Shown piece by piece: positions 5,701 to 52,675 of a DNA stretch of 64,000 nucleotides (positions are counted from its first letter, which is position 1; each line of letters opens with the position of its first letter). This stretch comes from Candidatus Hermodarchaeota archaeon (GTDB lineage Archaea > Asgardarchaeota > Hermodarchaeia > Hermodarchaeales > Hermodarchaeaceae), in assembly GCA_016839805.1 (NCBI GenBank), contig JAEOTO010000003.1:1-64000 (forward strand). Direction: 5' to 3'. A program made the position numbers and the translations under genes. The notes under the pieces are model-generated. The model had not been told where the DNA came from. It ran no database searches and saw only the letters and a list, made by a program, of their open reading frames with translations.

Positions 5701-6714
5701 TCAGGTGGAGTGGAGCACATTCCCTTTAGCATCTAGCACGGCTCCGGTTAAGTCGGTATTGACAGGAACATGAGTGTCTGGCAAGGTGATGCACCGAGAT
5801 AACACGGAATTCGAGTATACTATTGTATGGGGCCCAAGGGTTGTAGCATTGTCAATGAGACAATTATCACCGATATGTACACGGGGACCTAAGAGGACCG
5901 GACCCTCAATCTTTGCCTCTTTCCCTAAAGTTAAAGTCGCACTTTGGAGGGGACCTTCCATCGATGTCCCCGGAGGTAGATAGGTACCTGGAGGTTGAGG
6001 CTGCGGAGGCCATCCCTCAGCGAGAAGATAGGCATTCAAAGCCACGAGGCTTGTAACAGAATCAACATCACACCATACACGATCAGTAATCGGAATACCC
6101 TGAAGAGGTTGATCCTGCATCAACCACTGCTGTAAGAGAGTAAAGACTGTGGACGCAGAATCGGTAGCACTTCGAATAGTGCTCTCAAAAAATCGAGTAG
6201 TCGCTCGGAGAGCCGGTAGCCCTGGATAATACCCTGCAAGGTAGACAGATGATTGGGTGAGGGCCGAAACTAGCTCCGAGGTATCAAGCTGAAGAAGTGT
6301 ACCAGGTCCATGAGAAAAAGGATCAAAGAGGAGAGCTACTTCCGCAGAAGTAGTTGTCAAGAGGCGGAGATTTTCTGCAGAGATATAGAGGTCTCCAGGT
6401 AAGAGGACGCAAGGAGTAGTTTTGGATAAGTATGGCAACACTGATTGAAATGATGCTAAAGGACCCTGTTGCCAGTTAGGTGTCTCGATGGGGATAAGAT
6501 CGCCATGAAGTGATAACGTAGTGAGGTAATCCTGCATCGAGTCTCTCGCGTATCCTAAAGTGACATAAATCTCAGTAAATCTGGCAGCATCGACGGCAGC
6601 GAGTAGATAATCTAACAGGGGACGATTGGCAACGGGGAGAAGGGATTTTGGGTGCTGATCAGTGAGTGGTACAAGGCGCTTGCCACTACCACTCGTCAGG
6701 ATCACTACTTGCAA
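5701..6714 (-). CDS. NDP-sugar pyrophosphorylase/nucleotidyltransferase with C-terminal left-handed beta-helix
   Basis: ILTSGSGKRLVPLT..HPKSLLPVANRP, WCDVD and hexapeptide repeats. TTG at 6714 follows a GAGGT SD (ORF track start 6753). Confidence 0.8.
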   Translation of the reverse strand: MQVVILTSGSGKRLVPLTDQHPKSLLPVANRPLLDYLLAAVDAARFTEIYVTLGYARDSMQDYLTTLSLHGDLIPIETPNWQQGPLASFQSVLPYLSKTTPCVLLPGDLYISAENLRLLTTTSAEVALLFDPFSHGPGTLLQLDTSELVSALTQSSVYLAGYYPGLPALRATTRFFESTIRSATDSASTVFTLLQQWLMQDQPLQGIPITDRVWCDVDSVTSLVALNAYLLAEGWPPQPQPPGTYLPPGTSMEGPLQSATLTLGKEAKIEGPVLLGPRVHIGDNCLIDNATTLGPHTIVYSNSVLSRCITLPDTHVPVNTDLTGAVLDAKGNVLHST

Positions 6715-8650: not shown

Positions 8651-9430
8651 TTAGAGGGGGAAGTGCCAGAAAAACCAATCTGGTAAAAGCCAGGGAGCCT
8701 GAACTCGAATGATAAAGGTAACGTATAATGCAAACATCAGAATCAGGGTGCTTAACACCATCAAGGCATAATCTCGCTTGCGAAGCTTGAGTTCGTATAG
8801 ACTAGTCCGATTAGTTGTTGATCCGAATGCCCGTGATTCTAGACTTTCAGCAACTTGAAGGGCTCGGCGTATAGAACTGACGATGATGGGAATTAGGATG
8901 GGGATGTAATTGCGGACTCGTTGGAGTATATTGCCACGTTCTAATTCTAACCCTCGAGACATCTGTGCGTCACGAATGGTTTCGGTTTCGGTGGCAATTG
9001 TGGGGACATATCGAACTGCCATAGAAAATGCAAAGGCAAATTCGTACGGAACCCGCATTTTGATTAGCGCTAGAGCAAAGTCATCTGGGTGGACAGTGAG
9101 AAAGAAGAGGGAAAAAGCAGTCATTAAGACGCCAAGACGCAGCACTGTGGATACGGCGAAGGAAAATGAGAGAAAGAACGTATTAATAGTGAGAATGAAT
9201 CCGGCGAGAAGCGCTAGACCCCGCAAGCTTTTAGACCACTGTCGCAGCGACCGAGCAAGAAAAATGAAGGGAATCATGGTAAGGAATATTATTAGTAAAG
9301 GGATGATTTCGAGGAATAGCATTCCGACGATGGAAAACACCACGGCCATGAAGAAAGTAGTCCTTGGATCAAGCCTGTGCATGAAGGTGTCTTTTTGTTT
9401 AAATCGAAATGCTTCAAAGATTGCGGCCAT
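8651..9430 (-). CDS. ecfT: ECF transporter transmembrane component T
   Basis: HRLDPRT, AQMSRG and LESRAF motifs; multiple TM segments. Confidence 0.92.
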   Translation of the reverse strand: MAAIFEAFRFKQKDTFMHRLDPRTTFFMAVVFSIVGMLFLEIIPLLIIFLTMIPFIFLARSLRQWSKSLRGLALLAGFILTINTFFLSFSFAVSTVLRLGVLMTAFSLFFLTVHPDDFALALIKMRVPYEFAFAFSMAVRYVPTIATETETIRDAQMSRGLELERGNILQRVRNYIPILIPIIVSSIRRALQVAESLESRAFGSTTNRTSLYELKLRKRDYALMVLSTLILMFALYVTFIIRVQAPWLLPDWFFWHFPL

Positions 9431-9437
9431 GCTGCTT

Positions 9438-10265
9438 TCACCTTCGACTCCGGAAAAGTTGGTTAACCGCATCCACGGCTTCAGGAAGCGTTGTAATATC
9501 TGTGGGAAATTGGGGTATGTGTTCAGCGAGCTGATGGGCAAATTGTGTCAATTGGGGAGGTAGTAATCGGGCCCTTTCAAAGATAGTAGGGTTATTGAGA
9601 ATTTGTCGAGGAGATCCGTCTGCGATAAGTTGGCCTTTTGAAAGGATGATGAGCCGGTCAACGGCTCTGATAGCAAACTCCATATCATGAGTGACGAGAA
9701 TTAAAATATGGTCAGGGCTTCGAAATGTTTCCATAAAATCAAGGAGTTTTTGTTTTTGAAGCGCATCTTGAGCTTGTGTTGGTTCATCCAAAATTAAGAT
9801 TTTAGGTTCGACACACAACACCGACGCTAATGCTAATCGCTTGCGTTCTCCACCACTTAACAAAAAAGGTGATTGGTCCTCATAGCGAGTGAGTTCAAAC
9901 AGTTCCAGATAGTGAGCCACTCGCTTCTCAATTTCGGCTTTTGAAAAATCTAGGTTTCGGAGCGCGAATGCAATCTCCGCTTGAAGTGTATCAGCGAAAA
10001 GTTGATGATCGGCATTTTGGAACACGAATCCGACTTGTCGTGCAAGCTGAGCTGTGGAGATTTCCCGTGTATCGACACCATCAACAAAGACTGCACCCTG
10101 GGTTGGCTTCAATAAACCGTTAATATGCTTAACTAGGGTGGTTTTTCCTGCTCCATTTTCTCCCATTAGTCCAATAATTTGACCGGGTTTTAATTGCAGG
10201 CAAAGATTTCGCAGAACGTACTGGTCAGGGTTATAACTGAACCAAACGTCATCAAAGATGATCAT
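9438..10265 (-). CDS. ecfA2: ECF transporter ATPase
   Basis: GENGAGKTT, FQNADHQ, LSGGE, ILDEPT. Confidence 0.92.
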   Translation of the reverse strand: MIIFDDVWFSYNPDQYVLRNLCLQLKPGQIIGLMGENGAGKTTLVKHINGLLKPTQGAVFVDGVDTREISTAQLARQVGFVFQNADHQLFADTLQAEIAFALRNLDFSKAEIEKRVAHYLELFELTRYEDQSPFLLSGGERKRLALASVLCVEPKILILDEPTQAQDALQKQKLLDFMETFRSPDHILILVTHDMEFAIRAVDRLIILSKGQLIADGSPRQILNNPTIFERARLLPPQLTQFAHQLAEHIPQFPTDITTLPEAVDAVNQLFRSRR

Positions 10266-29425: not shown

Positions 29426-30070
29426 TCACCCTATACGTTCTGTTATGTATCGTCCTCGGCTTTCGATCGCATTTACCTTTTGAAAGATTTCAGCGGCACC
29501 TTTTCCATAGGTGGCTAAATAACCTTTTTTGAATGCGTTATAGGAATCTTCCCAATAAGTAAAATGTGTGCTCTGGAGGGCTTGTTTGAGTAGATGTAAG
29601 TCAGTGCCAAAATCTTCGATGTTCTGAGTGTATGCAGCGAGACCAAAATCGATGAAATAAATACCGATTTGAGAATGTATTAGCATGTTAGATGTGGTCA
29701 AATCGCCATGCGTTATTTGATTTTGGTGCAAGCGTGCAACCGAGTTACCAATTTTCCGAAATATCTTTTGACGTTTTGCAGAAGGCAATTCGGGTAAGGA
29801 TTCCTTCAAACGTTTATTTGAAATAAATTCCATAACGATGGTCGCTGTATTCAAGTCGATGTTAAATACAATTGGAGTTGGAACGCCTGCACTCCGAGCA
29901 GCTGATAGTAGACGCGCTTCGCGGACTGTTCGTTGGTTACGGATTGAAGCGTCTATCTGTGGAAGGCGATAGCGCTTCGGGAGGCGATGTTTACGAATGA
30001 CTTGGAATCCGTACCAGTTTTCTAAGTAAAGGCACGCTTCTGCTCCCTTAGCGATGAGTTTTGATGAAAT
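29426..30070 (-). CDS. bud32: KEOPS kinase Bud32 (non-canonical ATT/ATC start, or readthrough from kae1)
   Basis: The frame stays open upstream of the ORF-track start up to 30073 and encodes LIAKGAEA...KHRLPKRYR...RTVREARLL...GVPTP. HGDLTTSN and IDFGL lie downstream. Confidence 0.92.
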   Translation of the reverse strand: MSSKLIAKGAEACLYLENWYGFQVIRKHRLPKRYRLPQIDASIRNQRTVREARLLSAARSAGVPTPIVFNIDLNTATIVMEFISNKRLKESLPELPSAKRQKIFRKIGNSVARLHQNQITHGDLTTSNMLIHSQIGIYFIDFGLAAYTQNIEDFGTDLHLLKQALQSTHFTYWEDSYNAFKKGYLATYGKGAAEIFQKVNAIESRGRYITERIG

Positions 30071-30073
30071 GAT

Positions 30074-31060
30074 TCAAACCTCCCAAGGTATGTCTACTTG
30101 GTCAAGACGCCATTTTGGTAGAATAGTGCTTTCTGATAGTGGAATGGATTTTCTGGCTTTGAGGAGGAGTAACCCATTGTATGCGATCATCGCCCCGTTG
30201 TCACCTGCATATTGTAAAGGTACGGAGTCAAAGCTAGCTGAATGTTCTGAAGCGACAATTTGAAGCATTTCACCAAGTCGAGCATTAGCTGCTACGCCAC
30301 CAGTAGCGATTACTTCTTCACGTCGCGTATGCGCAAGGGCACGCTCAACAACTTCGGCTACCATTGCAAAAGCCGTTTCTTGAAGGCTATAACAGACAGT
30401 TTCTAACCTAGTACCTTTTGAAAGGAGCCGTTTTGCTGCAGTCAAAAGACCAGAAAATGCCAGATCCATACCCTTAACGGTGTAGGGTAGTTCTTGATAG
30501 TCCCCCGTAGATTGTTGTGCAAGCTTCTCGATTTTAGGTCCACCTGGATGATGAAGCCCGGCTTCTCGAGCAAACATGTCCAGCATATTTCCTAAGGCGA
30601 TATCCAGGGTTTCGCCAAAAATGCGATACCGTCCCGTTTCCAATGTTGTTATCTGGGTATTTCCTCCAGAAAGATATGCAACTAGTGGATTTTTTGCTTG
30701 ACAGAAATATCGAGCCTGTTCGATATGAGCTACACAATGATTGACTCCTAAGAGGGGAATCTTAAGGGCTCCAGCGAGACTCCGGGCTATGACTGCCCCT
30801 ATTCGAAGGGCAGGAGGTAATCCTGGTCCCTGTGAAAAAGCAATTCCCTTAATTTTATCAAGAGGTACCTGAGCTTCTTCGAGGGCTCTTTGAAGGACTG
30901 CGAGGGCGTGTTTTTGGTGGTGCTCTGCCGCTTCGCGAGGATGAATCCCTCCTTCCGATGGTGTATACACTGCTCTAGTCTCCGTGAGAATTTGTCCTTC
31001 TCCATTGACTATACCTATTCCTAGTGTATGGGCAGTGCTTTCAATACCTAAGACGAGCAT
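30074..31060 (-). CDS. kae1: KEOPS N6-threonylcarbamoyltransferase Kae1
   Basis: LGIESTAHT, HCVAHIE, SGGNT, GETLD, GDNGAMIA. Confidence 0.97.
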   Translation of the reverse strand: MLVLGIESTAHTLGIGIVNGEGQILTETRAVYTPSEGGIHPREAAEHHQKHALAVLQRALEEAQVPLDKIKGIAFSQGPGLPPALRIGAVIARSLAGALKIPLLGVNHCVAHIEQARYFCQAKNPLVAYLSGGNTQITTLETGRYRIFGETLDIALGNMLDMFAREAGLHHPGGPKIEKLAQQSTGDYQELPYTVKGMDLAFSGLLTAAKRLLSKGTRLETVCYSLQETAFAMVAEVVERALAHTRREEVIATGGVAANARLGEMLQIVASEHSASFDSVPLQYAGDNGAMIAYNGLLLLKARKSIPLSESTILPKWRLDQVDIPWEV

Positions 31061-31142
31061 TACAATCGAACCAGATTAAGAGTCTAGGACAGAGGCAACG
31101 CTATACAAGTTACTGCGTTGATAATCGTTATGGGAATTACGC

Positions 31143-31325
31143 CTATTTTTCTTTCTCTGTTTCTTTCGAAGAGGGTTTAAATTCCGTGAAGCCACAGTTG
31201 CCACAGTGGAAGCGATCCTTATGTTCAGCCATGAAGGTTCCTTCTCCGCAGCGTGGACAAGAACGGCGTTTGCGTTCAAGTTTACCGTCCTTTCCCTGTG
31301 AATAATATTGGTGTGGTTTTGACGT
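31143..31325 (-). CDS. rps27ae: 30S ribosomal protein S27ae (eS31); probable ACG start
   Basis: Not in the ORF track. (M)[49 protein letters not shown]...; in-frame TGA at 31332-31334 just upstream. Confidence 0.93.
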
Positions 31326-31359
31326 TGGTATTCACCTTCTCTGTTGTTTCAAAATGAGG

Positions 31360-31857
31360 TTATGAACTCTTTTTCTTTTTAGGAGGACCTTTTGGTTTTT
31401 CCTCCTTCTTCTTAGGAGCTTCCTTAGGCTTCTCCTCCGTAGGAGGCTCCATTGGTTCCTTTTTCTTCTTAGGAGCTTCCTTAGGCTTCTCCTCCGTAGG
31501 AGGCTCCATTGGTTCTTCGGGCTTCGTTTCTGGCATTTCAGGTGGGGGAGGTGGAGCGGTCTCAGCAGGGGGAGCTTCTTCTTTGGTGTGCCGCATTATG
31601 ATATAGTCTTGCTCATGGGCCACCGCTGCGTCTTTTGAAGGGTATTGGCGAGCGAACCCTTGTGTTGTCGATTGTCCGTATAATCCATTAAGTTTGATGA
31701 TGTAAAGAGTGTCTTCTTTGCAATTCAACATGGCTGCAAGTTTTGCACGAACATCAAGACGTGTGGGAGTTGCTGTACCTTGGTGTTCGACAAGAAACGT
31801 TATTTCCTGACGTTTAAGGAGTGGATTATCCATTTTTTCTTCAATCTTGATTTTCAT
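31360..31857 (-). CDS. rps24e: 30S ribosomal protein S24e with Pro/Glu/Lys-rich tail
   Basis: NPLLKRQE, TPTR..VRAKLA. ATG at 31857. Confidence 0.93.
   Translation of the reverse strand: MKIKIEEKMDNPLLKRQEITFLVEHQGTATPTRLDVRAKLAAMLNCKEDTLYIIKLNGLYGQSTTQGFARQYPSKDAAVAHEQDYIIMRHTKEEAPPAETAPPPPPEMPETKPEEPMEPPTEEKPKEAPKKKKEPMEPPTEEKPKEAPKKKEEKPKGPPKKKKSS
31406..31515. repeat. Tandem duplication (53-bp identical copies, 57-bp period) in the rps24e tail
   Basis: 31406-31458 = 31463-31515; encodes EPMEPPTEEKPKEAPKK twice. Confidence 0.9.
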
Positions 31858-32404
31858 TGTGTGGCACCATTTTTTGTAGGATATTTTCAACGGCTTGTTT
31901 ATGTGTAGGCGTTACCTTGATGACTACGATTCCCTGATCAGGGAGACCATAAACAACAGCTGAATCAGTGGGTGCAAGCGCCACTGCGGGTAGTGCCGTT
32001 AGGTCCTCTTCGCCCTCTATTAAGAGTTTCGCAGTTTTCTCTGATTCCCTCATTTCTAAGGCTAACTCAATAGCAATCCAAACCTCAGGGCGAAGTTCTG
32101 CTGCTGGATTAACTGCGAAAAAAATTACATCTGCGACCAAGTCGTAATCGAGTTCATCATGACGCTTGGTTTTTCCATCTAAAATTGAGAGGGTTGCCTG
32201 GCAATTTACTTTTGCTAGGTTGATTGATACAAGATCACCTACTGCGATTATTGGATGAAGCTTGTGTCTGCGGATATAAGCGCAAGCATCCTCAGCGGCA
32301 CCTAAACCTGACCGCGAGAATAATTTACCCTTGGGACCTTTGAGCAAATGTCGATGTTGTTCTGGGAGTGTAAGTCTGAGTTCCCGCAGCTGCTTGGCAG
32401 CCAA
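31841..32404 (-). CDS. GTP-dependent dephospho-CoA kinase (DUF359)
   Basis: VGDLVS, DGKTKR, NPA, GEEDL, YGLPDQG. Confidence 0.9.
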   Translation of the reverse strand: MAAKQLRELRLTLPEQHRHLLKGPKGKLFSRSGLGAAEDACAYIRRHKLHPIIAVGDLVSINLAKVNCQATLSILDGKTKRHDELDYDLVADVIFFAVNPAAELRPEVWIAIELALEMRESEKTAKLLIEGEEDLTALPAVALAPTDSAVVYGLPDQGIVVIKVTPTHKQAVENILQKMVPHNENQD

Positions 32405-32424
32405 CTAGGTTACCTCGCTTCTAT

Positions 32425-32613
32425 TTATCGGACTTGAAGGGCGTATTCCCCAGGTTTAGTGATATTGAGCTTTTGGGCTATCATAGAATTTTCAGGGTCA
32501 AAAATGAGAACAAGCCCTGAGAAACTTTCAGAAAGATTTGTACTTTTACAAATTGGACAATGCGATTTAGTTGTCATAACATGGCAGACTTTACAGGCTT
32601 TGCGTTTAGCCAT
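32425..32613 (-). CDS. spt4: Transcription elongation factor Spt4 (RpoE'')
   Basis: KACKVC...CPIC...GLVLIFDPENS..A..L.I..PGEYA. Confidence 0.95.
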   Translation of the reverse strand: MAKRKACKVCHVMTTKSHCPICKSTNLSESFSGLVLIFDPENSMIAQKLNITKPGEYALQVR

Positions 32614-32661
32614 TTTTTTCACATCTTCATTATATTGTGCGTGGGACCGAACTCTGTAAAG

Positions 32662-33270
32662 TTATTTTTTCTTTGTTTGATCTTTTCCTTCTTTCTTTTT
32701 CTCAGCTTTTCGCTTAGAGTCCAGGAGTTTCGCGATTTCTTCTTTTATCCATTCCAACTTACCTAGAAAAGGCTGTCGCATTGTCAGTCCTAATTTCCCA
32801 CTGCGTGCGCCGCCATCAATACTTACGGCAACAATGCGTGTTCGGACTAGATCACCTTCTGTTATTCTCCGACCGGTTTCTTTACCAACGAGTGCAGCAC
32901 TTCGGGGATCGTAGGAGAAGAAATCATCAGTGATTTGACTTACGTGACATAGCCCATCAAGGGGACCCAGTCGGATGAAAGCCCCAAAATCGACGACTTC
33001 AACCACCTCCCCTTGAGCAAGGAAATTTACTTTGGGTTCGAAGGTAAGAATGGTGAGGTTTACATCATGGTAGGTGGCACCATCACCGGGAATGATTTTT
33101 CCAACACCGATATTGAGGACTTCGGTGACAGCAATAATAAATCCGAGGTCTACATCGATGATGCCTTCATATTGTTCTCGGAGTATCTCCTCAGCGACCT
33201 CGTAGAGGTCTTCGTTAAATCGATTTGGCGGAATGCGCACATGCCCTTTAATGGTAACAGCTTGGTAGAT
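32662..33270 (-). CDS. rpoE1: RNA polymerase subunit E' (Rpo7); probable ATC start
   Basis: GGAGG-7 nt-ATC TAC CAA... gives (M)YQAVTIKGHVRIPP; FGAFIRLGPLDGLCHVSQI, LTMRQPFLGK. Confidence 0.95.
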   Translation of the reverse strand: MYQAVTIKGHVRIPPNRFNEDLYEVAEEILREQYEGIIDVDLGFIIAVTEVLNIGVGKIIPGDGATYHDVNLTILTFEPKVNFLAQGEVVEVVDFGAFIRLGPLDGLCHVSQITDDFFSYDPRSAALVGKETGRRITEGDLVRTRIVAVSIDGGARSGKLGLTMRQPFLGKLEWIKEEIAKLLDSKRKAEKKKEGKDQTKKK

Positions 33271-33358
33271 AGTCTTGCCTCCGGTCTCGGAACGGTTACA
33301 GGTTGGGCTGATAAGCTTTTCTATTTACTTGGAAACCGCGTGGTTCTTCGGGTTGAAA

Positions 33359-33802
33359 CTATTCAGTGAGAGCGAGAACAGAAAGCTTTCGCAAAAAAAT
33401 GGCGCGAGACCCTTGTTTCACGAGTTTTCGACGTAAGTCTCCATCATTGGTGGCAACAATTGCGTTTATCTGCTTGGCATATTGAAGCAATGCGGTGTCG
33501 GCGTCAAGGTTTTGCAAGGATTGTGGTAGATTTTCTACAAGTTGACAATTTTGGTGTACTAGGTGTAAAGCATTCCTTGCAGCATTTTGTTCCTTAGTCC
33601 TACCATTCTCTTGTAACCATTTGATTTCCCTGAGTATTTGTGGCATAATGAGGAATGTTACATGCCTTCCTATTAGACGTGGGATTTCTTCGTAAATATC
33701 AAAGCGTCGTTGAAAAGGTAAAAGCAAGAAATTTGTGTCAAGGAGAACTTGTGTGCTATGGTTCGACCCAATATTATTCTTCAATGACGGTGCCCCATCC
33801 AA
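33359..33802 (-). CDS. PIN-domain nuclease (Fcf1/Utp24-like); start uncertain
   Basis: LDTNFL, ADTAL, VATND..LR; synteny after aIF2gamma. Confidence 0.85.
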   Translation of the reverse strand: MDGAPSLKNNIGSNHSTQVLLDTNFLLLPFQRRFDIYEEIPRLIGRHVTFLIMPQILREIKWLQENGRTKEQNAARNALHLVHQNCQLVENLPQSLQNLDADTALLQYAKQINAIVATNDGDLRRKLVKQGSRAIFLRKLSVLALTE

Positions 33803-35033
33803 TCAAACGCCACCTCATCTCAATCTGTCGACTAATTGCAACGCGTTGCCCTGGAATAATCGCAACAGGTTTCCGGAGTGCAAAGGTGGTTTGATTTTTC
33901 CCTTCCAATTTCGTTACCTGACCCACTGTTGCTGAGGATCCAACAATTAGCATGAGCGTTTCATTCAATTTTATGTTTTTCACAGCAATTTGTTCGACTG
34001 CACCAACCACACGTTTTAGGAGATTTGTTTCCAGGGTAAGTTGTTCTATAATGGGTGGAAGTTGGCCAGTTGGTCCGGCGAGATTGCCAATGAGTGCGTC
34101 AGCCCGTGTCAAGGCAGGATCAAGCTTTGTTCCTACACCGATGAGACCGCTTGGATGGGCGGTTTTCAAGGTTTTGCCCGTTCCGGTTTGTATACTGGTT
34201 ACTGAGGTGAATATGGGTTCATAGGTAAAGGAGCCCTTATCCTTCTTAATTGGAATTCCTGGGCGAATTTCTAATTCATCGCCAACGGATACTTTTCCTT
34301 GAATGATTGTGCCGCCAATAACCCCGCCCTGTAATTCTTTGGGTCGTGTACCAGGTTTATTGATATCAAAGGATCGAGCGACATAGAACAGTCCTGCTTT
34401 TTGCAGGTCCCGTTTGGGTGTGGGGATGACTTTCTCAATTGTTTGAATGAGCACGTCTATATTAGTGCCAAACATTGCAGAAATCGGAATAATTGGAGCA
34501 TCTTCTGCGATAGTTCCTGAAACAAAGTGTTTGATTTCATTGTAATTGTTTAAGGCTTGTTTTTCCGATAGCAGTTCGATTTTATTTTGCGCAATTATTA
34601 TCTTATCAACGCCAATTATTTCCAAAGCCGCTAAATGTTCCCTTGTTTGTGGTTGAGGACACTTCTCATCTGCGGCAATAAGGAGTAAAGCCCCATCCAT
34701 TAGAGCTGCTCCAGAGATCATCGTTGCCATTAAAATCTCATGTCCTGGTGCGTCCACCAATGAAATACGACGAATGGGTTCTGCTATTCCTCCACATTTT
34801 TTACATTTGGAGCTTGTTGTGTAACCAGCGGCTCCTCTACATTTAGAACACTTGTAAATATCTACATCTGCATATCCTAATTTAATCGAGATACCTCGAC
34901 GAAGTTCTTCAGAATGCCGATCTGTCCATTCCCCCGACAAGGCTTTAGCCAACGTGGTTTTGCCATGATCAACATGACCCACTAATCCTATGTTGACTTC
35001 GGCTTGTTTTGGCATAGTTTTTCGTGGGGGCAT
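33774..35033 (-). CDS. eif2g: Translation initiation factor 2 gamma
   Basis: GHVDHGKTT, RGISIKLGY, DAPGHE, NKIE, WRLIGWG. Confidence 0.97.
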   Translation of the reverse strand: MPPRKTMPKQAEVNIGLVGHVDHGKTTLAKALSGEWTDRHSEELRRGISIKLGYADVDIYKCSKCRGAAGYTTSSKCKKCGGIAEPIRRISLVDAPGHEILMATMISGAALMDGALLLIAADEKCPQPQTREHLAALEIIGVDKIIIAQNKIELLSEKQALNNYNEIKHFVSGTIAEDAPIIPISAMFGTNIDVLIQTIEKVIPTPKRDLQKAGLFYVARSFDINKPGTRPKELQGGVIGGTIIQGKVSVGDELEIRPGIPIKKDKGSFTYEPIFTSVTSIQTGTGKTLKTAHPSGLIGVGTKLDPALTRADALIGNLAGPTGQLPPIIEQLTLETNLLKRVVGAVEQIAVKNIKLNETLMLIVGSSATVGQVTKLEGKNQTTFALRKPVAIIPGQRVAISRQIEMRWRLIGWGTVIEE

Positions 35034-35613: not shown

Positions 35614-37395
35614 CTATATACCCCAAAAGGGTTGTACATGCTTTCGTTTTAATTGCAGGAACTCAGTTAGTAATTCGAGTTCATCAGAAGTAAGATTATC
35701 TTTGAAGTCTTGACTAAGACGAATGACCATACCTTCAGGAAGATCAACATAGAGGATGTCCCCCTCATCAATTTGACGACCTACGGTAGCTCCGCGTATA
35801 GATACAGCAATTTCGGCACCAATTCGTGCCTCACGAATGGTTTCGCCCTTATCTTGAATTTGTTGTATGGTTCCGATTTTCTTGTTTTCCGGGGTGATGA
35901 GTGTACTTTTAGCACGAACACGTCCCGCCAATACTCTCACACCCACGACCGCGGGATTGCTTTGGCGAAAGACATAACCAGGAAGTAATTCGATTTTACC
36001 AGGGAAAGTTAGTTCTTCTAGCATGGCTTCTTCTAATTTTCTACGTTTCTCGGTTACCCAGGTTTCATATTGGTCAACAAGGTCATAGATAATCTGACTT
36101 TGAAAGATTGGGACTCTACGAGCATCAGCTTCATTCATTGCGTCAGGTAAAGGTTTAGTATTAAAGGTCAATACGACGCCTAAAAATGGATCAGCGTCAC
36201 CAACAGTTGACACTTCCACGATATCCTTCTTTGAGATGTCACCAATATCGGCACGGCGAATTGGTATATCTCGTTCACGTAGGTATTCGATTAGAGCCTC
36301 TAAGGATCCAAGAGTGTCCGCTTTCAGAAAAACTCCGATTTTATCAGTTTCAATTCGAACGGCTTCCATGTCCTGAATAATTCGCTCAGTAGCGGCAGTC
36401 ACTTCCTCTTCAGAATTAGCTACGTATAAGCCCGCACCAGCAATTGCATCGTCCAGTTCAGGAGCGGCAATTTTTATTCCTGCAGCTGCAACGACTTCTT
36501 TGACGGGGGAAAAACGTTCACGTGGATCACGAATTTCATCCAGCGGTTTGGGCATCAGAAGGGCGCGAACGTGGGTTGTCACTGGTTTGGGAATTCCCCC
36601 TACAACAATTGTGTCGCCCTTGTTGAGCACACCATCGTAAATGATGGTGTCAATTGTCACACCAAGACCTGCCTCTTCCTTCACTTCTAGTACAACACCT
36701 TTTGCAGGACCTGAGGTGGTTTGGAGTTGTTCCTCAAGATATTGTTGAGCTAGTCCTATGAGAACTAGTAGTAGTTCCGATAATCCTTCTCCAGTTTTGG
36801 CGCTGGTTGGCACGATAGCTACGGTCTTAGCAAAATCTGTGATTCGGTCAAACCGGTCAGACTGAAATCCTTCACGCGAAAGATCCCCCATGACTTCATA
36901 GATTTTTTCGTCCAATTGACCACGAACATACTCAGATTGAGAAGTCAGTGACTCATTAAGAACCCATGTTTTTTGGGCTTTCCAGCCTGGTAATCGATCC
37001 ACTTTGTTTAGTGCAATGAGATAAGGAGTTTTACGGGCTTTTAAAATTCGAAGAGATTCATAGGTTTGTGGTTGTAGTCCATCGACAATATCCACTACAA
37101 GGATTGCGATATCAGCAACAGCGCCTCCTCGTTTGCGTAGATTGAAGAAAGCAGCATGGCCTGGTGTATCGATGATAAGGAGACCAGGTAGCGTAAGTTC
37201 GTGTTTGAACGTTTCCATGAGTGGACCAACGAGCTCTTTCACGGTTGAAAGTGGAAAGAAACTCGCACCGATTTGTTGAGTGATTCCCCCTGCTTCGCGG
37301 GCTTGAACACCAGTTCCTCGGATTTTATCAAGTAAGCTGGTTTTACCTGTATCGATATGTCCAAGCATGGTGACGATGGGTTGACGGATTGGCAT
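35614..37395 (-). CDS. infB: Translation initiation factor aIF5B (IF-2)
   Basis: IRQPIV..LGHIDTGKT, IDTPGH, NKVD, KADTLGSLEA; no intein. Confidence 0.97.
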   Translation of the reverse strand: MPIRQPIVTMLGHIDTGKTSLLDKIRGTGVQAREAGGITQQIGASFFPLSTVKELVGPLMETFKHELTLPGLLIIDTPGHAAFFNLRKRGGAVADIAILVVDIVDGLQPQTYESLRILKARKTPYLIALNKVDRLPGWKAQKTWVLNESLTSQSEYVRGQLDEKIYEVMGDLSREGFQSDRFDRITDFAKTVAIVPTSAKTGEGLSELLLVLIGLAQQYLEEQLQTTSGPAKGVVLEVKEEAGLGVTIDTIIYDGVLNKGDTIVVGGIPKPVTTHVRALLMPKPLDEIRDPRERFSPVKEVVAAAGIKIAAPELDDAIAGAGLYVANSEEEVTAATERIIQDMEAVRIETDKIGVFLKADTLGSLEALIEYLRERDIPIRRADIGDISKKDIVEVSTVGDADPFLGVVLTFNTKPLPDAMNEADARRVPIFQSQIIYDLVDQYETWVTEKRRKLEEAMLEELTFPGKIELLPGYVFRQSNPAVVGVRVLAGRVRAKSTLITPENKKIGTIQQIQDKGETIREARIGAEIAVSIRGATVGRQIDEGDILYVDLPEGMVIRLSQDFKDNLTSDELELLTEFLQLKRKHVQPFWGI

Positions 37396-49999: not shown

Positions 50000-52675
50000 T
50001 TAAGACTTACGTTTCCAGGCTGGAGGATAGGTTCCAGCAGGGATTACAACTCGCATTGTTTTTGCCACTATTCCCGAAGAAGCTTTGAGTATTTGTTGCG
50101 TTGATTGTTGCGCTATTGCCAAAGCAACGAGCTCAGTTTTAATGGTTAGAATAGCAACGGTATCTCCCGGTTTTATGTCATCATGGAGTTGCAGCACACC
50201 TGCCACAGCTAGGTTGGCACCATGGCATAATGCATCGACTGCTGTGTCTCGAATTACAATTTGAGGCAGGTGAGCCACGCCATCCTCCAAAGGGTGTAGA
50301 ATCAGACGGAGAGGTTGCTGGTCTTTCTCCTCTTGCCAGAAATGATAGGCATCGACTACATCATAGAGAGTTGCTAAGGTGGAATCTTCTTTGAAGGGTC
50401 CGGTTCGAGTGCGGCGAAGTTCAGCCATATGAGCTCCACCCCCAAGAGCTTCTCCAATATCATAGCAATTGCTTACAAACGCAGCACCATTCAATGCAAA
50501 ATTATGATGCTGGTTTACGGTTATATCATAGACATAATCGAAATCTGCAGTTGTTTTTTCAACCGCTTTGATTTCGTCCAGAAAGTATTTTGCATTTACT
50601 TGATTTTTCAATGCAATTAGGTCGAAATCGTTCTTAGGCACTACTTTTTGTAATGATTTGACTATTTTTGATAAAATCAGTCTGGTTGGTCTTTTACCTG
50701 TCAATAGTTGATTAAATGCTCCTCCTCTGTAAATTGAATTTTTTGATAACCCATATTGCTGAATTAAATTTTTGATATGGGTTACGCATGATATGGGCAT
50801 TAAGTCTTGTGAGCCATATGATTTGTATCGTGAAAAACGTGTTTCAAATTGCTTAATCTTTTTTTGTTTCTTAGGGTGTTTACATTTCATTAATTGGGAA
50901 AACCGAATTTTGTCAAAAGGCGATTTAATTATCACATGGTATTTTGGAGTTTTTCCACTCTCATCAAAGGTTGAACCTAGTCTTTCATATATCTTTGAAC
51001 GTATTCCAAGGCGTTTTAGTAGTAGAGCTAGTTGAACTGCAATATGATAAAAAGCTGTGTCGTATGCGATCTCTGTGTAAGGTGAATTCGTTTTAATAGT
51101 AACTGTTCCATCGCCATCAAAGTATCCTGACATGAAGTTTGAAATCATATCTTTTGAGAGAGAAGAAAGGTTTTCTAAATGCATAGTTTTCTTTGGACTC
51201 ATAATTCCAAGTTTTTTCGCAATGCCTGCAAGAACGGGATTATTTACCGTCACAAGAAATGTTCCAGAGATTTCTGATTGTCGAATGCTAGTTGCTGGAA
51301 AGAACCGATTTACTGTTTTAATGAAATATTGAATGAGTTTACTTTCTTGGTTGGTAAAAATTACCCTCGTAGGTCGTATGCATTTCTTTTCTTGGACCAC
51401 ACTACCATCAGACGCCACCAAACCTAGTAAGAATAGAAGTTCGGAATTAATTTTCTTCTCTGAAATTGAATAGTAAGCACCTCTCTCGCCTTTGAACGCT
51501 TCAACCATCTCGCAAACTGAAGTCCAATCTAGTCTAGTTTCCTCACAAACTTGGCGAAGATACTTAATTCGAATACCCATTCCTGTTTGGAGAAAGACTC
51601 GCCTGTCTATTCCAAGAATCCTACAGGCTTTTGTTACACTGCCAAACGCTTCTGAAAGGAATTTCTTGCATTGTTTTTTCAGTTCGTTTCCAAGGCAAAG
51701 GAAGTCCTGATCTAAAAGCTCTAGAAGATATGGGATTTTCTCATTTTTTTGAGTTAATTCTCGGGGGCTGAAAAGAAAGTTTCCTGGAACGATGTCTTCT
51801 GCATCTTTCAATAAAGGACCTTTGATATCATCAACTAGTATTTCATGGTCAGGAGTAACTTGGAGTCTAAGACCCGAATCAAGTTTGAGCCTGACCATTT
51901 CAGAAGGCGCTGGTAATTTTTGGACTGCGGTGATGGAGGAAGATTCAAGTTTGTGGTCGTGAAGATTTAAAGAAAGTGTCTCCAAAAATCCCAAATCTAA
52001 TTTATTGGAATTAGAAGAATCCAACCTTGAATCAACGACCTTCGAGATTTGGTGGAGACCTCCATTTTGTAAAAAGAGAAAAGAAGAGGGAGAAACACAT
52101 AACTTTCTGATGTAGGTTCCAGCTTGACAGCCGACGCGAAATAAGACGTTTTTCTCTTCAATTTCTAAGATATGTATGTAGTAGATTTGACGCGTACGAA
52201 CACGCCGTTTTACTGAGGAGCGAACAGGAGGTCGTTGATAAATCGTTCCTACAAACTCTGCTGCAACCTCACGAATTTTATCTGGAGATTCCTCTTGATG
52301 GAGCCGCATAACACAGACGTATTCTTTACCCGATGTAAGGAGTGCATTAGCAATTTTGGTGGAATTTCCAAGCATAACGGGAAGCACACCAGTGACCTGA
52401 GGGTCCAATGTTCCTGCGTGACCTGCTCGATCTAGACGTAGAATACGTTTTACCCAGGACACTACTTCATGGCTAGTCGGCCCAGGAGGCTTTTCTGGGC
52501 TTGTAAAAGGTCAATAACCTCTTAAAGGCAAGCTATCCAGATTGATGATCCCATCCCGAAATAACTCAGGAATGGTTCGCTCCTGTGGAACACGACCATA
52601 AGCCGGATTCGTAGTATCCTCGGCACGCGTTACCAGTTTCCGTTTCTTATCTGCAGGCAGCCGCGGCTTTGTCAC
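50000..52675 (-). CDS. cbf5: Cbf5 (TruB-family H/ACA pseudouridine synthase): join(52675..52535, 52492..50000), containing an intein
   Basis: GAGGAGG SD then GTG at 52675. Exon 1 ends GIINLD; exon 2 begins [15 protein letters not shown]; [24 protein letters not shown] and PUA domain follow. Confidence 0.95.
50468..52099 (-). mobile_element. Intein (544 aa) with LAGLIDADG homing endonuclease in cbf5
   Basis: N-junction RKL/CVSP; block [10 protein letters not shown]; LLGLVASDG and [10 protein letters not shown]; block F VYDITV..HNF; C-junction VSN/CYD; visibly AT-richer than the exteins. Confidence 0.93.
52493..52534 (-). other. 42-nt bulge-helix-bulge mRNA intron in cbf5
   Basis: CTGG-AT^A-GCTTG...CAAGC-CCAG-AA^A. 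Cutting after the second nt of each 3-nt bulge restores GAT-AAG (D-K). Contains an in-frame TGA. Confidence 0.9.

Follow-up and report, generated by a model that had tools for sequence, protein, structure and literature searches.

Probable Shine-Dalgarno-placed initiation at near-cognate codons on core genes of Ca. Hermodarchaeum

Near-cognate starts between infB and the ITPase gene

Here we describe three genes that very probably begin at near-cognate start codons within a window of 64,000 nucleotides (nt; G000:C9:1-64000) of an Asgard archaeal genome (G000; 2.31 Mb, 87% complete). The genome was placed in the Ca. Hermodarchaeum group, and its closest named relatives by Rpo7 (89-95% identity) include Ca. 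Hermodarchaeum yapensis and several Ca. Hermodarchaeota metagenome-assembled genomes. On the minus strand the genes run in the order infB, rps6e, eif2g, PIN, rpoE', spt4, DUF359, rps24e, rps27ae, kae1, bud32, and ITPase, which is the usual archaeal gene neighbourhood. Within this run rpoE' (encoding Rpo7), rps27ae (eS31), and bud32 are preceded by Shine-Dalgarno (SD) motifs that point to ATC, ACG, and ATT, respectively (Table 1). We consider it very probable that these codons are the real primary starts, and that initiation placed by the SD and tolerant of a mismatch is a trait of Hermodarchaeota. A near-cognate codon was taken to be a real start where it occupies the start column of relatives, lies at the usual SD distance, has no usable NTG codon upstream, and is followed by a segment under purifying selection.

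The three start codons, their SD spacings, and the positions of the first NTG codons had been pointed out in an earlier note on this DNA, and every coordinate checks. The spacings (GGAGG-7, GGTGA-6, and GGAGG-8) are typical of the genome, in which 495 genes whose first NTG lies near an upstream stop give peaks at 6 nt for GGTGA and 7-11 nt for GGAGG. No 16S rRNA gene was found in the assembly, and the anti-SD is unreadable from G000. Assembly error is contradicted at the level of the bases: contigs of the probable source run are identical to G000 at each of the three starts, and in an independent study's contig that spans the rpoE' ATC the six differences all lie elsewhere. When the aligned start columns were inspected in related Asgard genomes, near-cognate codons recurred in all three genes.

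Residue 1 of Rpo7 aligns with position 1 of its profiles (NCBIfam PRK08563, TIGR00448) and with Met1 of PDB 8cro_E, while the first NTG (GTG 33240) lies 10 codons inside. The start column holds ATC in 12/12 congeneric genomes and CTG and ATT in two sister-genus genomes; it is never ATG across 16 family loci, and it is ATG in the outgroups (two other Asgard families and Methanosarcinaceae). The ATC is exact throughout the genus, whereas the 12 internal columns with invariant Ile all vary in their codon, so something appears to hold ATC in place. Consensus folding of the leader was weak (-1.9 kcal/mol), and the idea of a conserved hairpin covering the SD was abandoned. Since rpoE' has its own conserved BRE/TATA-like element (transcription factor B recognition element and TATA box), whose promoter role is taken from the archaeal consensus, it need not share a transcript with infB and eif2g.

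Upstream starts for rps27ae are excluded by an in-frame TGA (31334-31332) that forms part of the GGTGA motif itself, and the first NTG (ATG 31232) lies beyond the first CxxC. Among 16 family genomes from both genera, all with the same SD, the start column is ACG in 11 and ATG in five; ACG is also present in two assemblies (L311, L313) of the narrow sub-clade discussed below. The gene lies 34 nt past the stop of rps24e, which itself (window 31360-31560, minus strand) encodes a C-terminal tail rich in Pro/Glu/Lys that includes an internal repeat.

The bud32 gene, the sole strong Bud32 match in G000, follows kae1 directly: the kae1 TGA at 30076-30074 is succeeded at once by ATC (30073) and ATT (30070). 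Bud32 aligns with M. jannaschii Bud32 from residue 3, and the first NTG (TTG 29854) lies 72 codons past the ATT, beyond the Gly-rich loop and the Lys/Glu region of the kinase N-lobe. The stop-ATC-ATT arrangement is common to four further assemblies (L311-L314, from NCBI, ENA, JGI, and Logan, the last two yielding an identical protein; 83-98% identity) and hence to five with G000. In all five, no NTG occurs until codon 74, ATC-ATT is invariant while neighbouring codons vary, and the N-terminal differences fall mostly at third positions. In 17 other family genomes the bud32 column is ATG (15), GTG (1), or TTG (1); G000 has TCA there, and its ATT sits one codon before that column. A metagenome scan for bud32 gave no matches. 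The weak start of bud32 therefore appears genuine but recent, and restricted to the sub-clade.

For bud32 alone, the ATT might be irrelevant if ribosomes read through the kae1 TGA to make a Kae1-Bud32 fusion. In each of the five sub-clade assemblies both genes lie in one frame, separated by a lone TGA, and natural Kae1-Bud32 fusions exist (PRK09605; H. volcanii, PMC4615747). Nevertheless, we hold readthrough to be unlikely, given the strong SD at an optimal distance from the ATT, the invariance of ATC-ATT amid varying codons, relatives that have the same in-frame layout and retain their own ATG, and a linker shorter than that of the M. jannaschii fusion. No credible suppressor tRNA was found either: an aragorn tRNA-Pyl call was rejected, as it looks like an intron-containing tRNA-Lys, and a tentative tRNA-Sec call would need a 1193-nt intron.

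Table 1. Features of the window that bear on start-codon choice; positions are those of the window, lengths of encoded proteins are in amino acids (aa).
Feature	Positions	Strand	Evidence or remark
aIF5B (infB), ATG start	35614..37395	-	Negative control for the feedback idea; family loci: ATG 12, TTG 1
aIF2gamma, ATG start	33774..35033	-	Negative control for the feedback idea; ATG in 13/13 family loci
BRE/TATA-like 14-nt element upstream of rpoE' (inferred own promoter)	33307..33320	-	Invariant in 14 leaders, two genera
SD GGAGG, 7 nt 5' of rpoE' ATC	33278..33282	-	Invariant in 14 aligned leaders
rpoE' (Rpo7) coding sequence, 202 aa, inferred start ATC 33270-33268	32662..33270	-	Profiles, structure, 12/12 genus genomes
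SD GGTGA, 6 nt 5' of rps27ae ACG	31332..31336	-	AAGGT invariant in 16 genomes
rps27ae (eS31) coding sequence, 60 aa, inferred start ACG 31325-31323	31143..31325	-	PRK00432 above cut-off; family start column
kae1 coding sequence, ATG start, same frame as bud32, stop abutting bud32	30074..31060	-	Coupling/readthrough context
SD GGAGG within final kae1 codons, 8 nt 5' of bud32 ATT	30079..30083	-	Kept in L311-L314
bud32 coding sequence, 214 aa, inferred start ATT 30070-30068 (alternative ATC 30073)	29426..30070	-	TIGR03724 above cut-off

Near-cognate starts across the genome and the family

Near-cognate starts are found well beyond this locus. A codon-blind test was performed on 1268 ortholog pairs between G000 and its congener G011 (2.05 Mb of G011), the column chosen being the first with an SD at standard distance in both genomes. 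NTG codons stood in both genomes at 204 of the 230 shared-SD columns; at the non-NTG columns, near-cognate codons accounted for 9/19 in G000 (p 3.5e-4) and 16/26 in G011 (p 1.4e-8), against a background of 13%. Two columns scored as other codons were near-cognate starts read one codon late, including that of rpoE'. Near-cognate starts amount to ~4% of SD-led genes in G000, and by inspection ~11 ATH/ACG and 4 CTG starts are solid, with 4 more ambiguous. Other screens were less useful: an SD-anchored scan of the single genome gave just 19 non-NTG sites and little power, a raw screen for conservation before the first NTG was swamped by conserved non-coding DNA and needed a filter for synonymous changes, and a test for NTG in the sister genome was noisy, with internal Val/Leu codons taken as starts, and served for candidate collection only.

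The start column of rpoA', read in 17 family genomes, is ATT in 8, ATC in 3, ATA in 3, and ATG in 3, and this interchange of four codons at one position is, to judge from the alignments, the clearest sign that they play the same role. The most conserved TFB paralog has ACG in 18/18 family genomes; in the sister genus an in-frame TAA lies directly before it. Family genomes carry 4-6 TFB paralogs, the main one being 91-100% identical over its first 200 aa. Those of G000 lie at G000:C22 76337, C44 566, C21 104469 and 103221, and C27 24209, and only the most conserved starts with ACG, the other four with ATG. TBP is present in the same genome in 3-4 copies, of which some lie at contig ends. A 339-aa protein (L174:330-1346; G000:C26 88829) without an NCBIfam match is encoded in 19/19 family genomes, always from ATC or ATT; searches with this query found it absent from 12 other Asgard genomes. 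At G000:C22 190992 (minus strand), a gene whose N-terminus, on our reading of its motifs, presumably resembles Cdc6/Orc1 starts with ACG in G000 and ATG in G011.

Between the near-cognate codon and the first NTG, all six genes tested show third-position bias, with differences by codon position of 8/3/32 in rpoE', 82/34/199 in rps27ae, 344/200/786 in bud32, and 39/5/165 in rpoA'. In five of the six, amino-acid identity is the same within this segment as in the remainder of the protein; TFB is the exception, with a lower value (0.86 vs 0.98). Conservation of these starts, interchange of ATG and near-cognate codons, purifying selection, and the enrichment of near-cognate codons among SD-anchored non-NTG starts in both genomes of the pair support the relaxed, SD-driven start selection that the earlier note had proposed for this lineage.

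These data bear directly on the objection that the three genes reflect assembly errors, pseudogenes, or truly shorter proteins beginning at the first NTG. Although public gene calls often do begin at a downstream NTG, the same codons occur in many independent assemblies, the source-run contigs are free of differences, and the omitted segments are under purifying selection and contain a Zn-binding Cys pair (rps27ae) and the kinase N-lobe (bud32). We regard all three as scarcely credible and, at the DNA level, as refuted. C-to-U editing of the kind found in plant organelles, here turning ACG into AUG in the transcript, would account for the interchange of ACG and ATG at rps27ae and two other genes, but would leave ATC, ATT, ATA, and CTG in the same contexts unexplained; we know of no description of mRNA C-to-U editing in archaea, and consider it highly improbable here.

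The earlier note had also drawn attention to the clustering of the three starts. While the starts themselves appear real, the cluster is weak: three of seven adjacent genes with near-cognate starts would be expected in 0.03-0.8 windows per genome at rates of 1.5-4.5%, which is near chance, and outside the narrow sub-clade just one or two of rpoE', rps27ae, and bud32 carry them.

Invariance differs among the genes. Under the proposed mechanism the start codons of rps27ae, rpoA', and bud32 would drift to and from ATG, while rpoE', the 339-aa gene, and the main TFB never return to ATG, which suggests either selection for a weak start or local constraint. None of 12 internal invariant Thr columns of TFB keeps a single codon. 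In the genus, the TFB ACG overlaps the last codons of the upstream gene, where a change of ACG to ATG would create a stop, so the overlap explains part of the invariance; the sister genus, however, retains ACG without the overlap. A conserved leader hairpin over the TFB SD was dropped, the leader being the coding end of the upstream gene.

One possible addition to SD-placed initiation, which we advance only tentatively, is that weak starts are retained by selection as a means of restricting or controlling the basal transcription machinery (Rpo7, the largest RNA polymerase subunit, and the main TFB), with output tracking initiation stringency. The fixed ATC of rpoE' and the fixed ACG of TFB, each set against internal columns that do not keep one codon, would fit such selection, as would the presence of three transcription genes among the ~11 solid ATH/ACG cases. 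Yet rpoA' reverts to ATG in 3/17 genomes, the TFB overlap accounts for some of the invariance there, canonical starts are found on rpoB, rpoA'', rpoD, rpoL, TBP, TFE, and the four other TFB paralogs, and detection is biased toward highly conserved genes. The broadest version, in which Hermodarchaeota (and perhaps Asgard archaea widely) would routinely accept a mismatch at any position under an SD and keep weak starts on these three genes so that transcription capacity follows stringency, seems to us rather unlikely.

Initiation apparatus and proposed mechanism

In the mechanism that we favour, SD pairing would pre-position the 30S subunit and place the codon in the P site, where the ordinary CAU initiator tRNA would pair with one mismatch at position 1 (CTG), 2 (ACG), or 3 (ATC/ATT/ATA), giving a product with N-terminal Met at an efficiency below that of AUG. 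Such tolerance would belong to the initiation machinery of Hermodarchaeota, with a few percent of genes drawing on it. At bud32 and TFB, ribosomes that terminate on the abutting gene upstream and then reinitiate probably contribute.

In G000, after removal of two introns, the initiator tRNA has a CAU anticodon and three G-C pairs; its gene (G000:C22 215274-215393, minus strand) carries these introns in the D-loop region and at 37/38. An altered, non-CAU initiator finds no support in this gene, in a genome that is 87% complete and may have a second one. The factors aIF1, aIF1A, aIF2, and aIF5B are all present, and loss of aIF1 was likewise rejected, a SUI1 match above cut-off being found in 29/31 genomes and the Zn knuckle and basic loop being intact. 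The aIF2beta gene (G000:C14 ~9300-9600, minus strand) encodes a long Lys/Ala/Thr-rich N-terminal extension.

Several points weigh against SD-placed, mismatch-tolerant initiation. The aIF1 of G000 has its basic loop 1, and aIF1 discriminates against AUU in Sulfolobus, and proofreads and rejects AUU in P. abyssi and S. solfataricus (PMC4705826, PMC6237735); tolerance despite aIF1 implies weaker proofreading or simply a low but sufficient output. Three genomes have an in-frame ATG two codons 5' of the rpoE' ATC, 1 nt from the SD, at which translation of rpoE' could begin in those genomes. Finally, the notion that initiation is more relaxed here than in other archaea rests on the literature and on single genes. 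An aIF1 substitution, which the earlier note had suggested looking for, did not emerge as a lineage-specific cause: loop 1 is R-K-W-G-R in G000, where P. abyssi has R31-Y32-G-K34 (PMC6237735), but the Trp form (R-K-W-G-R/H/K), in place of the functionally tested Tyr32 of P. abyssi, is common to nearly all Asgard families sampled, and only two of 29 Asgard aIF1 sequences lack it.

Compared with P. abyssi and S. solfataricus, Ca. Hermodarchaeum shares aIF1, aIF1A, aIF2, aIF5B, a CAU initiator tRNA, and narrow SD spacing. Reviews list only AUG, GUG, and UUG as archaeal starts (PMC7531240). In H. volcanii profiling, near-cognate codons made up ~30% of putative alternative sites and were set aside (PMC7261190), whereas in Ca. 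Hermodarchaeum there are conserved core genes with no other possible start. Among 36 prokaryotic genome triplets, 61,358 AUG starts included one switch from AUG to AUU and two from AUG to CUG (PMC5622118); this corresponds to annotated AUG-to-AUU/CUG switches of ~1 in 20,000 across prokaryotes, an underestimate inasmuch as the counts are annotation-based. Termination-reinitiation coupling has been studied at overlapping stop/AUG pairs (Huber et al. 2019, PMC6728339), and the bud32 and TFB starts are alike in that they adjoin or overlap the stop of the preceding gene, whose last codons hold the SD, an arrangement that fits such coupling. As rpoE' opens its own unit and rps27ae begins 34 nt past the rps24e stop, coupling cannot be the general explanation. 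A literature search on near-cognate or ACG starts in Asgard archaea found no relevant paper, most subscription journals being outside its coverage.

Near-cognate starts are familiar elsewhere. NCBI table 11 lists ATT, ATC, ATA, and CTG as starts; to our knowledge ACG is not among them, so the ATH starts fall within this table and the conserved ACG of TFB and eS31 does not. E. coli infC starts with AUU and is autoregulated through IF3; like the present genes, it is an essential gene with an SD-led start one mismatch from AUG, but in Ca. Hermodarchaeum such starts affect a few percent of the SD-led genes, ACG is among the codons, and aIF1 itself starts with ATG. Eukaryotic and viral genes such as AAV (adeno-associated virus) VP2 and Sendai virus C' use the same set of near-cognate codons (ACG, CUG, AUU), decoded by Met-tRNAi; those starts depend on scanning in a Kozak context and mostly yield minor isoforms, whereas here the SD would set the position and the near-cognate codon would be the principal start. 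The Ca. Hermodarchaeum starts would accordingly resemble bacterial AUU/AUC initiation in operation, not infC-type autoregulation.

The earlier note had offered, as an alternative to relaxed start selection, a feedback loop of that type, in which low fidelity or low t6A (threonylcarbamoyladenosine) would boost translation of bud32 and its neighbours and thereby bring fidelity back. The ATT of bud32, which encodes a KEOPS subunit, would fit such a loop, and loss of Sua5 raises non-AUG initiation in yeast (PMC4615747). The premise that t6A37 is known on the archaeal initiator tRNA was overstated, its presence there being called unclear (PMC4705826). An infC-type loop needs a weak start on a fidelity factor, and these genes have none: aIF1 starts with ATG in all 17 family genomes in which it was found, aIF1A, aIF2alpha, aIF2gamma, aIF5B, kae1, and sua5 start with ATG, and aIF2beta starts with GTG or TTG (GTG in G000). 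The ATT of bud32 is confined to the sub-clade, with NTG codons in 17 relatives, neither rpoE' nor rps27ae encodes a fidelity factor, unrelated genes throughout the genome carry near-cognate starts, and the gene neighbourhood is ordinary and the cluster within reach of chance. We therefore judge the loop very unlikely in this family. In another Asgard family, aIF1 (G025:C32 ~6150-6450) appears to start with ATA behind GGAGG, which lends the idea some support and makes this gene a candidate for true infC-like autoregulation there. For Ca. Hermodarchaeum, near-cognate starts would seem to be a lineage-wide habit missed by gene finders, with no operon-specific feedback loop.

Consequences for annotation and additional observations

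Some public annotations already agree with SD-placed near-cognate starts, as NCBI records of Rpo7 and Bud32 from some relatives begin with Met at the near-cognate column (MHA2406000.1, TRO50494.1, P0016), ATC being taken as the start in some of them without comment. Others do not: public Rpo7 calls in a single cluster vary in length between 115 and 233 aa, three assemblies have Bud32 shortened to 135 aa, and one lacks any call for rps27ae. Gene finders that cut or miss such proteins may give rise to false claims of missing genes or degenerate kinases in Asgard genomics. Conserved ACG and AUH starts on core genes may further serve as natural substrates for testing aIF1/aIF2 stringency in the lineage nearest eukaryotes; how these factors set stringency is an open question in PMC4705826.

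Two interrupted genes were also observed. An EF-2-family gene (G000:C22 ~180554-180620, plus strand) has a 31-nt insert between EEEQRRG and ITIKSA, with a bulge-helix-bulge shape, a GGGG/CCCC core, and 3-nt bulges, whose predicted cuts restore R-R-G-I-T-I-K. In G011 the gene is broken at the matching position by an insert laid out in the same way, and the insert is likely a tRNA-type mRNA intron. Within the window, cbf5 (~52490-52540, minus strand) is split by an insert containing a stop; the same holds for cbf5 of G011.

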